From Kiritimatiellia bacterium (GTDB lineage: Bacteria > Verrucomicrobiota > Kiritimatiellia > RFP12 > UBA1067), in the NCBI GenBank assembly GCA_017507065.1, contig JAFWBO010000109.1:1-36739 (forward strand): a stretch of DNA of 36,739 nucleotides. Reading direction: 5' to 3'. Position 1 is the first letter of the stretch; every line of letters starts with the position of its first letter. A model generated the notes under the pieces. That model had not been told where the DNA came from, ran no database searches, and was given only the letters and a program-made list of their open reading frames with translations. The position numbers and the translations under genes are program-made. This document shows positions 1-36,704 of this stretch, in pieces.

Positions 1-284
1 CCATTTTCAGTAAAGGCGTATGGGAGGTATTTAATATTACTTCCACGGCTTCCGTTCAAGATGCCAATTTGGCATCTTGAACATTCTTCACGAGTCAGCT
101 GAAACATGAAATCGTCTGGGAAACGTTCAATGTTACGTTTGACTTGTCTGTTTAGTTGACTAACTTCAACGCCATACAACTCCGCCAAATCCCGATCAAG
201 CATAACCTGAACGCCGCGAATCGTGAAGATTCGCGAACGTATCAAATCGGAGTTTGATAATTCCTGTATGGCCAGTTCGTTCAT
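1..284 (-). CDS. ORF6N-domain protein (putative DNA-binding), 5' part only; runs off the left edge
   Basis: Manual translation from the minus-strand ATG at 284: MNELAIQELSNSDLIRSRIFTIRGVQVMLDRDLAELYGVEVSQLNRQVKRNIERFPDDFMFQLTREECSRCQIGILNGSRGSNIKYLPYAFTENG. It has the ORF6N hallmarks IRGxxVMLDxDLAxLY, VKRNxxRFPxDFMFQLT and LPYAFTExG. Absent from the ORF track because it has no stop in the window. Confidence 0.9.
   Translation of the reverse strand, partial: MNELAIQELSNSDLIRSRIFTIRGVQVMLDRDLAELYGVEVSQLNRQVKRNIERFPDDFMFQLTREECSRCQIGILNGSRGSNIKYLPYAFTEN
54..82. repeat. Perfect 14-bp inverted repeat with 1-nt spacer (29-bp palindrome) inside the ORF6N gene
   Basis: GTTCAAGATGCCAA-T-TTGGCATCTTGAAC; the arms are exact reverse complements. 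Confidence 0.95.
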
Positions 285-316
285 GTCCTATAAAATTCTC
301 GTCAGAAAACGTCTAA

Positions 317-325
317 ATTGTATCA
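317..325 (-). promoter_or_regulatory. Putative extended -10 promoter for the ORF6N gene
   Basis: Minus strand reads TG-A-TACAAT about 32 nt upstream of the ATG at 284, divergent from the fba promoter. Confidence 0.5.
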
Positions 326-394
326 TTTTTTCGTCGATAATCATAGAGGGGATGAAATTTTTGTTGCTGACTTGCCAGTGCGGGCTTCCTACTA

Positions 395-424
395 TTGATT
401 TAACAGCCGTCAATATGGTATAAT
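395..424 (+). promoter_or_regulatory. Putative sigma70 promoter of fba
   Basis: TTGATT (395-400), 18-nt spacer, TG-G-TATAAT (416-424); AGGAG Shine-Dalgarno before the ATG at 474. Confidence 0.65.
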
Positions 425-473
425 ATAGGCAATTTGCCTCTATCGGGGCATATTTACAAGGAGAAAAAGAAAA

Positions 474-1472
474 ATGGTCAGCTACAAAGATCTTGGTCTC
501 GTAAACACCAGGAAGATGTTCGCGAAAGCGGTAAAAGGCGGCTATGCCATCCCTGCTTTCAACTTCAATACGATGGAGCAGATGCAGGCGATCGTCCAGG
601 CCGCCGTCGAGACGAAGTCTCCCGTCATCATGCAGGTTTCCAAGGGCGCTCGCAAGTATGCCAACCCCACGATTCTGCGATACATGGCGCAGGGCGCCGT
701 CGAATACGCCAAAGAACTCGGCTGCAAGAAGCCCCAGATCGTCCTTCACCTCGATCACGGCGACAGCTTCGAGACGTGCAAGAGCTGCATTGATTCCGGT
801 TTCTCCTCCGTCATGATCGACGGCTCGTCTCTTCCTTTCAAAGAGAACATCAAGCTTACGAAGAAGGTCGTCGCCTACGCCCACAAGCACGATGTCACCG
901 TCGAAGCCGAGCTCGGCGTTCTCGCCGGCGTAGAGGATGAAGTCTCCTCGGCCGAGAGCCACTACACGAAGCCCGAGGAAGTGATCGAATTCGCGACGAA
1001 GACCGGCTGCGACTCGCTCGCCATCTCGATCGGCACCTCCCACGGCGCCTACAAGTTCACGCCCGAGCAGTGCACTCGCGATCCCAAGACGGGCAAGCTC
1101 GTCCCGCCGCCGCTCGCGTTCGACGTCCTCAAGGCCATCGAAAAGAAGCTCCCCGGCTTCCCGATCGTCCTCCACGGCTCGAGCTCCGTCCCGCAGGAAG
1201 AGGTCGATACGATCAACAAGTACGGCGGCAAGCTTCCCGACGCGGTCGGCATTCCGGAAGCCCAGCTCCGCAAGGCCGCCAAGAGCGCGGTGTGCAAGAT
1301 CAACATCGACAGCGACTCCCGTCTCGCGATGACCGCGGCCATCCGCAAGTATTTCGCCGAGAATCCGAGCCACTTCGATCCCCGCCAGTACCTCGGCCCG
1401 GCCCGCGAGAGCATGAAGAAGATGTACATCCACAAGATTGTCAAGGTGCTCGGGTCGAACAACAAGCTCTGA
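474..1472 (+). CDS. fba: Class II fructose-1,6-bisphosphate aldolase
   Basis: Motifs YAIPAFN, LHLDHG, SSVMIDGS, VEAELG, LAISIGTSHG, VLHGSS, KINIDSD, FDPR. Confidence 0.96.
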   Translation: MVSYKDLGLVNTRKMFAKAVKGGYAIPAFNFNTMEQMQAIVQAAVETKSPVIMQVSKGARKYANPTILRYMAQGAVEYAKELGCKKPQIVLHLDHGDSFETCKSCIDSGFSSVMIDGSSLPFKENIKLTKKVVAYAHKHDVTVEAELGVLAGVEDEVSSAESHYTKPEEVIEFATKTGCDSLAISIGTSHGAYKFTPEQCTRDPKTGKLVPPPLAFDVLKAIEKKLPGFPIVLHGSSSVPQEEVDTINKYGGKLPDAVGIPEAQLRKAAKSAVCKINIDSDSRLAMTAAIRKYFAENPSHFDPRQYLGPARESMKKMYIHKIVKVLGSNNKL

Positions 1473-35831: not shown

Positions 35832-36704
35832 ATGAAAAGATACAATCACAAGCCGGTTCTGTTTGCTGCGGTATTTGCGGCAATAAATGTCGCGAGCGCC
35901 GTCGCAGCCGTGAACTTTCCGCTTGGGACCCATTTGATCAAAGGGACTCTCAAGGATTGGCAGAACAAGGTGCTAACATCGTCTTCGGCGGTGACAGTCC
36001 AGGCCGTCGCGACGAACGGAACGGTAATCGCCTCAACGCAGGTGGCGGACCCGACGGCGGACGGCTACAACTTCCTCCTGCAGATTCCGCTTTCCTCCAC
36101 GGCGACATCTTCCACTGCGGCCGTCGGCGACGATCTGAACTGCGTCCTCGTGCAGGATTCAGGGCTTTCGCTCGCGGTCAGTCCGATCAAGGTCGGCGAG
36201 GCGAATGCCGTATCTACGGTCGCTCTCGCGTACGTCAACATGAAGGACTACACTTCGACCAATGGCACGGGCACGACGGCGAGCGTCCCTGCGGAGTACG
36301 TCGAGACGATCGCCCCCTGGATGGATGCATACGAGATCGAGGGCGACTACGATCCCTTCGCCGACTACGACAACGACGGCGCGTCGAACTACGCCGAATA
36401 CCGTGCGGGGACGAATCCCTTTGACGCGACGGACAAACTTGCGATCACCGCCTACTCCGCGCCGAAGGACGCTCCCCATGCAATCAGCTTCGAGTACGCC
36501 GGCGGTCACGTCTACGGCGTCGCCACGACGCTCTCGCTCACGAATCCCCAGTGGGCGACGCAGAGGGTCAAGAAAACCGAGACGGACGTCGAGCGCGATC
36601 AGGTGATGCCGTCGGCCGACGAGGATGACGTGGGCATGGCGACAATCTACGTCGTTCCCGCTGAAGGCGCGAAGAGCCAGTTCTTCAAATTGGAGGCGCG
36701 TTGA
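35832..36704 (+). CDS. Hypothetical secreted beta-rich protein with a TSP3-like Ca-binding motif
   Basis: Signal peptide; Thr/Val-rich; DYDNDGASNYAEYRAGTNPFD; ends SQFFKLEAR. Confidence 0.75.
   Translation: MKRYNHKPVLFAAVFAAINVASAVAAVNFPLGTHLIKGTLKDWQNKVLTSSSAVTVQAVATNGTVIASTQVADPTADGYNFLLQIPLSSTATSSTAAVGDDLNCVLVQDSGLSLAVSPIKVGEANAVSTVALAYVNMKDYTSTNGTGTTASVPAEYVETIAPWMDAYEIEGDYDPFADYDNDGASNYAEYRAGTNPFDATDKLAITAYSAPKDAPHAISFEYAGGHVYGVATTLSLTNPQWATQRVKKTETDVERDQVMPSADEDDVGMATIYVVPAEGAKSQFFKLEAR

Follow-up and report, generated by a model that had tools for sequence, protein, structure and literature searches.

A palindrome in the DNA-binding-domain codons of ORF6N genes as a candidate site of the encoded protein

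Why should the codons of a DNA-binding domain form a perfect palindrome of 29 base pairs? The question is raised by a gene fragment at one end of a contig from a Kiritimatiellia bacterium (GenBank assembly GCA_017507065.1, contig JAFWBO010000109.1). The window, as we use the term, is the whole stretch of DNA analysed, 36,739 nucleotides, which is the entire contig (C79) of an assembly of 1.25 Mb in 127 contigs that is 72 % complete. The fragment encodes a protein of the ORF6N family, and its symmetric codons could be a by-product of the peptide, a trace of replication, the stem of a folded nucleic acid, or a site. We give a probability of about 0.7 to the reading, drawn from sequence comparison, that the palindrome is the cognate double-stranded DNA site of a homodimeric ORF6N protein, embedded in the codons of that protein's own DNA-binding domain. 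Conservation of the dyad, compensatory change between its arms, independence from the reading frame and a rule that ties a helix residue to bases of the site are established by comparison of genes; binding, the geometry of the dimer and the purpose of the site we infer.

One dyad at the same codon of ORF6N genes

Positions 54 to 82 of the window read GTTCAAGATGCCAATTTGGCATCTTGAAC, two perfect arms of 14 bases flanking a single central T. An earlier note, made from the letters of this DNA, had claimed a perfect 29-bp palindrome inside an ORF6N gene, and both the 14+1+14 arrangement and the in-frame position are borne out, as are the peptides that it gave: the coding strand reads S-R-C-Q-I-G-I-L-N and the opposite strand reads the same except F for I. 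The open reading frame (ORF) that contains the palindrome in frame lies on the minus strand at positions 3 to 284 (94 aa), is open at the contig end and represents the 5' part of a gene, 94 codons, cut by that end; the palindrome, which belongs to the GC..GC or 'R' class described below, codes for residues C68 (in part) to N77. The ORF matches Pfam ORF6N (PF10543) with an E value of 6.6e-30 and 103.7 bits over profile positions 2-78 of 86, and so passes the membership criterion of that family, a gathering cut-off of 27.8 bits. It also matches three profiles of PDC-S05, a candidate single-gene defence family of PADLOC (PDLC04869 at 1.2e-35, PDLC04856 at 1.2e-32 and PDLC04849 at 9.8e-22), and PHROG 4792, 'anti-repressor'. 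The GC content of the gene is 43 % as compared with 60.8 % for the remaining window, so the gene looks acquired. Perfect inverted repeats with arms of at least 14 and loops of up to 6 number only 3 in the whole assembly. An assembly fold-back at the contig end is ruled out as the origin of the palindrome: the frame runs on past the dyad with family-typical residues (GSRGSNIKYLPYAFTEN), and a contig of another public run (X1) is identical over window positions 1-384 and continues for 485 nt past the window start.

To follow the dyad through the family, the window protein was run against 40 related genomes, and an alignment of the first matches was then run against genome and viral contigs; the sources are the 40 relatives' genomes, 80 genome contigs from many phyla, archaea included, and 80 viral contigs. 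A profile search of the resulting 191 loci gave 157 distinct ORF6N domain DNAs, and 146 full-length domains were used, from Bacteroidota, Clostridia, Kiritimatiellia, Omnitrophota, Elusimicrobiota, Proteobacteria, Planctomycetota, Chloroflexota, several archaea and viral contigs. All 146 sampled domains have the dyad at the same codon, roughly 0.76 of the way along the domain. Of the 16 positions compared at the best centre, 10-16 form Watson-Crick pairs (median 13), against 7-11 (median 9) when the same search is made in the N-terminal half of the same genes. Perfect arms extend over 11-16 bp in 63 of the 146 domains and over 4-8 bp in 81, and most of these seemingly short dyads are merely interrupted at d7-d8, the seventh and eighth base pairs from the centre, with pairing resumed farther out. 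Accordingly, among the 138 sequences in the common frame (frame 0), d7 is paired in 110, d8 in 104, d10 in 138, d11 in 135, d12 in 129 and d13 in 124. The letters themselves vary widely, with 34 distinct 25-nt cores among the 48 sequences whose perfect arms reach at least 12 bp. In seven of the 146 genes the same core, GGTC[A/G]CAAATTG[T/C]GACC, is used one base out of frame and yields peptides of the type LVTNCDRF rather than RSQIVTS, so that conservation of the nucleotides spans two reading frames.

The arms change together. In an alignment of the 138 distinct 41-nt segments (A2), with 500 shuffles as the null, 85.4 % of cells pair as compared with 66.4 % in shuffles, a level that none of the 500 shuffles attains; the covariation score is 0.485 against 0.157, and two-sided changes occur at all 16 pairs, in 430 cells against 142. 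When the partners are slid by 1-3 columns, pairing falls to only 30-44 %. Several pair types occupy each position: at d4, paired in 132 of the sequences, AT is found in 65, CG in 40 and GC in 27; at d5, CG in 88, GC in 28 and TA in 11; at d10, GC in 84, AT in 53 and CG in 1; at d11, TA in 87, GC in 26 and CG in 21; and at d13, TA in 84 and CG in 39.

Could the symmetry be chance, or a by-product of a conserved peptide and its codon usage? The consensus peptide is palindrome-compatible, and conservation of the protein fixes the codons CAA ATT/TTT at the centre. Nevertheless, when the genes are recoded synonymously according to the codon usage of the family, 6.29 of 14 positions pair as compared with 12.49 observed, and the observed value is attained by 122 of 29,200 recodings family-wide; for the window gene 1 recoding in 20,000 attains 14 of 14, the mean being 6.96. 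The left member of the d10 pair is the synonymous third base of a Leu, Trp or Ser codon and the right one the second base that decides between Ser and Leu, so that in 138 of 138 sequences a synonymous position covaries with one 20 nt away that changes the amino acid. Given the deficit of the recodings and this coupling of a synonymous base to a Ser/Leu choice, protein constraint does not account for the dyad, nor would it place the same core in two reading frames. We regard chance or a peptide by-product as having a negligible likelihood.

How one arm follows the other can be read from close relatives of the window gene. In homologue L005 (72 % identical) the facing codons are AGG...ACC, a G-C pair. 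In L004 (82 % identical) they are AGA...ACC, where a synonymous Arg change has left an A.C mismatch and brought the perfect arm down to 6. In the window and in L003 (96 % identical) they are AGA...ATC, an A-T pair, and the perfect arms measure 14. The codon ATC for Ile75, in the right arm at window positions 60 to 62 of the minus strand, thus re-pairs with the synonymous AGA of Arg70; residue 75 is Ile in the window as against Thr in the consensus, and the series from L005 through L004 to the window and L003 indicates that Ile75 is a compensatory replacement forced by DNA symmetry. A second paired change distinguishes TCA...TTG in the window from TTA...TTA in L005. The earlier note had suggested that the two arms may co-evolve under selection at the DNA or RNA level and that ORF6N homologues should be searched for changes that preserve the palindrome; the search finds them, and the homologues keep the dyad by compensatory change while the peptide varies.

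A helix residue and the inner bases of the site

An AlphaFold2 model of the window protein (126 sequences, mean predicted local distance difference test score, pLDDT, 76.5) shows a beta-hairpin followed by helices 30-37 and 41-50, which together form a helix-turn-helix (HTH). The second of these, VSQLNRQVKR, encoded at window positions 135 to 164 on the minus strand, is the predicted recognition helix according to the model, mutual information and contingency tables. In the model S42, Q43, R46 and Q47 are found on one face of this helix; they correspond to alignment columns 34, 35, 38 and 39, and the codon of R46 occupies window positions 147-149. The palindrome-encoded peptide, residues 68-77, is modelled at lower confidence.

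When all protein columns are compared by mutual information with the pair states of the dyad, column 38 ranks top for d4-d5, followed by columns 35 and 39, and column 34 (S42) tracks d7-d8 at 0.51-0.56 against a background median of 0.16. A simple rule emerges at column 38: Q goes with CA..TG in 65 of 68 sequences, R with GC..GC in 24 of 34, E with CG..CG in 27 of 31 and K with TC..GA in 11 of 12. As side chains, Arg and Lys usually prefer G, Gln prefers A and Glu prefers C. Drawn from comparison, this pairing of helix residue and site is exact in 127 of the 146 domains, the window among them (R46 with TGCCAA-T-TTGGCA), and all seven out-of-frame genes conform to it. In most of the 19 exceptions one half-site is off by one base; L062 and L106 are truly discordant and L084 is badly anchored.

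Might helix and palindrome simply be inherited as a block? Column 38 has 0.95 of its entropy in common with the site class, column 35 0.55 and column 39 0.61, whereas the remaining variable columns outside the helix and the palindrome share 0.12-0.29, and columns 44, 45, 49, 54, 56 and 57, which intervene between the two, share just 0.17-0.22. The low sharing by other columns, the intervening ones included, indicates that neither block inheritance, which we reject, nor general relatedness is the cause of the rule. In 64 disjoint pairs of sequences that differ at column 38, both members conform to the rule in 50 and the site is unchanged in 1; these pairs, some of them 80-97 % identical elsewhere, were chosen greedily and are no rigorous replacement for a tree-based test. 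Likewise, at 12 loci neighbouring paralogues differ at column 38, and in 9 of these every paralogue has the site of its own class, the other 3 being one base off or badly anchored. The proposal of the earlier note that the palindrome could be a site bound by the protein within its own gene gains support from this comparison, in which the inner bases of the putative site can be foretold from a residue that the palindrome does not encode.

The rule also bears on a functionless origin of the dyad, in which a seed palindrome in the Q-I/F codons was 'perfected' by intrastrand template switching and protein selection merely filtered the outcome. In quasipalindrome correction, template switching during replication copies one arm onto the other. 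Such copying would fit two-sided transversions for which there is no wobble intermediate, among them C-G to G-C at d4 and d5, as well as the fact that the arms are frequently perfect and not just similar. Yet it leaves the helix-residue rule unexplained, as it does the fact that bacteria, archaea and phages all keep one 27-bp dyad, and in two frames. It also leaves unexplained the palindromes that lie elsewhere: at 110 non-viral loci, outside the ORF6N domains, we find 27 palindromes centred on CAA-W-TTG with arms of at least 6, as compared with 0.70 in shuffles. Moreover, the A.C intermediate of L004, between two perfect states, speaks for stepwise compensation, at least in this lineage. We consider it very improbable that template switching alone made the dyad.

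The candidate site and the protein that would read it

How would an ORF6N protein read a site of this kind? Each recognition helix of an HTH homodimer (residues 41-50 in the window protein) would read one arm, with residue 46 (column 38) reading d4-d5 and residue 42 (column 34) reading d7-d8. The centres of the half-sites, at about d6, lie 12 bp apart, a spacing that would suit two helices in successive major grooves. Since the two arms are coding sequence as well, a change in either is answered by its complement in the other, if need be with an altered amino acid, and helix residue and site appear to switch jointly among at least four specificity classes. Being inseparable from its gene, the site could serve as a 'self' mark on the carrier DNA for a candidate anti-phage protein, as aba does for BstA; alternatively, it could provide feedback on the expression of its own gene.

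Modelling points to a symmetric reader. For L007, a homologue of 188 aa modelled in two copies, the dimer score is 0.73, the best of 3 controls scoring 0.00; the mark set on this score is attained by 21 of 30 proteins solved as same-chain pairs and by none of 23 solved as single chains. The L007 runs agree in at least 67 % of contacts, with a partner pLDDT of at least 69, and the predicted symmetric interface comprises residues 93-129, directly after the domain. The ORF6N protein thus probably acts as a symmetric homodimer, as judged from these models.

Several results weigh against the reading of the palindrome as a site for the homodimer. A sequence search yields no solved relatives, a Foldseek search against the PDB gives no significant match (best E 0.5), and a wide fold search reaches a best Z of 5.4, with mostly winged-helix and HTH DNA binders at Z 3-5, a weak result in the range of common arrangements. 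The dimer model is that of L007, a full-length homologue 60 % identical to the window protein, which is itself truncated. On a quick tree built from 68 non-trait columns, 1-2 independent pairs per class fall on supported branches, below the reach of significance; the label changes counted on this poorly resolved tree, 49 for the helix residue and 56 for the site, are not event counts. The 14-mer half-site has no further copy in the 72 %-complete assembly, and a scan of the same assembly for the R-class 13-mer with up to 2 mismatches finds unrelated near-matches only. Fifteen extra palindromes stand 41-272 nt upstream of ORF6N domains, and the internal class of the gene is matched by 3 of the 15, which argues against simple autoregulation through those copies. 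Finally, the helix/base rule is equally expected for the stem of a hairpin or cruciform, as such a stem has the same base pairs as the half-site, and symmetry out to d13 exceeds the contacts of a typical HTH dimer, an extent that base pairing would predict.

These last two points lead to the explanation in which the selected feature is a structure, an mRNA or antisense hairpin, a single-stranded DNA hairpin or a cruciform, and not a linear duplex site. Such a structure could signal processing, pausing, nicking or recombination, and the protein might even so recognise it; its single-stranded form could arise through replication, conjugation or phage packaging. Base-pair symmetry with many pair types at almost every position to d13 agrees with it, as does the stability of the predicted RNA hairpin: the 41-nt segment folds at -20.6 kcal/mol as compared with -5.5 for shuffles (z = -7.1). 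Extrusion would be eased by the A/T-rich centre, and the centre base itself (A in 82 of the 138 sequences, T in 55, G in 1) varies as a flipping hairpin loop would have it. A stem in the sense RNA should, however, favour G.U, and at d1-d14 of the 138 sequences G.T mismatches number 27 against 52 for A.C. Nor does a pure structure account for a helix residue 25 codons upstream that predicts the base pairs at d4-d5. As regards inversion or a flipped centre, contigs from 4 public runs have neither an alternative letter at position 68, the centre, nor a joint over window positions 1-700; this is weak evidence against a structure, as contigs drop rare variants and are uninformative in this regard. 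On balance we hold a structural signal to be unlikely. An intrinsic terminator is ruled out, since on the coding strand the stem is followed by GGAAGCCGTGG, without a T-run, and stands in frame in a conserved domain.

Further palindromes, known systems and a possible self tag

Some of the extra palindromes outside the sampled domains are found inside divergent ORF6N-like genes that the profile missed. One example, TGAACCGGTCACAAATTGTGACCGGTTCA at position 2227 of L063, has arms of 14 bp and would translate as E-P-V-T-N-C-D-R-F; it probably belongs to a divergent ORF6N-like gene of the out-of-frame type. The upstream copies are mostly of the common CA..TG class (L035, L036, L040, L051, L074, L079, L089, L091, L096, L097, L105 and L009), and in L089 an identical ATCACAATTTGTGAT precedes both ORF6N genes. 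Upstream palindromes whose class differs from that of the gene hint at cross-talk between paralogues. At L008, L011 and L017 the palindrome-encoding motif LRSQIVTLN is in tandem duplicate, giving two dyads 39-45 nt apart, of which the upstream one carries a G.T or other mismatch. In L106 an ORF6N domain with two palindromes of its own is followed downstream by an array at 2175-2379 of five different perfect ones, with arms of 9-17 bp, CA..TG and CG..CG alternating, and an exact spacing of 51 nt. In gut viral contigs of the L150-L191 type, many of them near-identical, TGGGGACAAATTGTCCCCA with arms of 9 bp occurs at about position 2351, 670 nt downstream of the ORF6N dyad, and looks like a terminator stem rather than a site of the family.

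The window itself carries a second, shorter palindrome between the ORF6N gene and fba, AGGCAATTTGCCT at positions 427 to 439, with 6-bp arms, a CAA-T-TTG centre and other inner bases. It directly follows a TATAAT-like hexamer, and its membership in the ORF6N system is uncertain. The core GGCAATTTGCC recurs as CTGGCAATTTGCCAG on another contig of the assembly (G000:C27:400-414, L192 400-414), about 60 nt upstream of an ORF resembling an oxidoreductase with a twin-arginine translocation (TAT) signal, and CAAWTTG sites number only 24 in the 1.25 Mb; the core may represent an operator of the host or else a fifth class of site. We rejected the idea that the GGCAATTTGCC motif is sigma-54-like, its spacing being off the consensus. 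A third CAAWTTG of the window (36686-36692) was dismissed as non-palindromic and located at the end of an unrelated ORF.

The ORF6N genes also leave a mark on assemblies, in which their conserved segments behave as breaking repeats. Two runs (X2 and X6) show a pile-up of depth over window positions 49-96. Several assemblies break inside ORF6N genes, with cases in the window, at the end of L003 and in L018 and L020; the break comes after codon 94 in the window, after codon 85 in G017:C100 and after codons 46-51 in others, and in L031 paralogues have identical N-termini and diverge afterwards.

Is there a precedent for such an arrangement? The principle of a site inside the gene of its own binder is already known: the iterons of the lambda origin lie in gene O, and parS sites lie within parB/spo0J. 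As in ORF6N genes, the site is located within the coding sequence of its binder and is hence co-inherited with it. The lambda O and ParB sites, however, serve replication and partition, are several in number and occupy linkers or regions outside the domain, whereas an ORF6N gene usually has one putative site, inside the binding-domain codons, with covarying arms and with no replication or partition genes implied.

The nearest described logic is that of BstA, a prophage defence protein with a KilA-N-like DNA-binding domain that is neutralised by its cognate DNA element aba (PMC8585504). The likeness, as far as sequence goes, is that of a phage-associated protein with an N-terminal DNA-binding domain and a short DNA element that overlaps the coding sequence and is cognate, in ORF6N genes putatively, to its own protein variant. 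The aba element spans 63 bp, 29 bp upstream and the first 34 bp of bstA, and depends on direct CCCGCC terminal repeats (PMC8585504); extracts of that paper contain no mention of a palindrome or inverted repeat. The ORF6N element, by contrast, occupies codons 68-77 in mid-domain as an inverted repeat, and it is family-wide, with a readable rule from residue to base. Because the orientation of the repeats and the position differ, we do not file the ORF6N case as a member of the aba type, by analogy its closest parallel; the likeness to BstA is one of description, a Pfam scan of the window protein at E up to 0.01 giving ORF6N alone.

A connection to defence comes from PDC-S05, three profiles of which the window protein matches. 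The member of this family reported as protective, a RhuM-domain protein, lowers the plating of T7 and T5 about 1,000-fold (10.1101/2024.09.26.614923), and the extracts of the preprint have nothing on a palindrome. To the phage 'anti-repressor' proteins with ORF6N and KilAC domains (PHROG 4792; PF10543) the likeness is one of domain membership. Full-text literature searches, whose coverage excludes subscription journals, found no description of an internal palindrome in ORF6N genes; where the string 'palindrom' stands alongside ORF6N, in extracts of PMC6591296 and in the title of PMC4173771, it is the CRISPR acronym. New here are the position of the putative site in the codons of the binding domain, the symmetry kept by compensatory substitutions, even amino-acid-changing ones, and a specificity rule of one residue that spans three domains of hosts and viruses.

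What would the arrangement mean for the family? A broader proposal, which we offer tentatively and think possible though rather doubtful, is that ORF6N genes constitute a widespread self-recognition system with a readable code, diversifying class switches and a site that acts as a 'self' tag exempting its carrier, be it a prophage, an island or a chromosome, from an anti-phage or anti-replication activity of the protein; sites of another class before neighbouring ORF6N genes would, as part of this proposal, wire paralogues into a cross-regulatory network. If the reading of the palindrome as a site is true, a very common and uncharacterised family associated with phages and defence islands carries a binding site inside each of its genes, with a specificity legible from a single amino acid, Q, R, E or K at position five of the helix motif that is S-Q-L-N-R in the window protein. 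It would offer a natural set of orthogonal pairs of protein and site, and a second, mechanistically clearer example, after BstA and aba, of the logic of a cognate DNA element within a gene. The Thr to Ile replacement at residue 75 is an unusually clean example of selection for DNA symmetry forcing an amino-acid replacement, and forced replacements of this kind bear on how conserved protein motifs in the ORF6N family are to be read.

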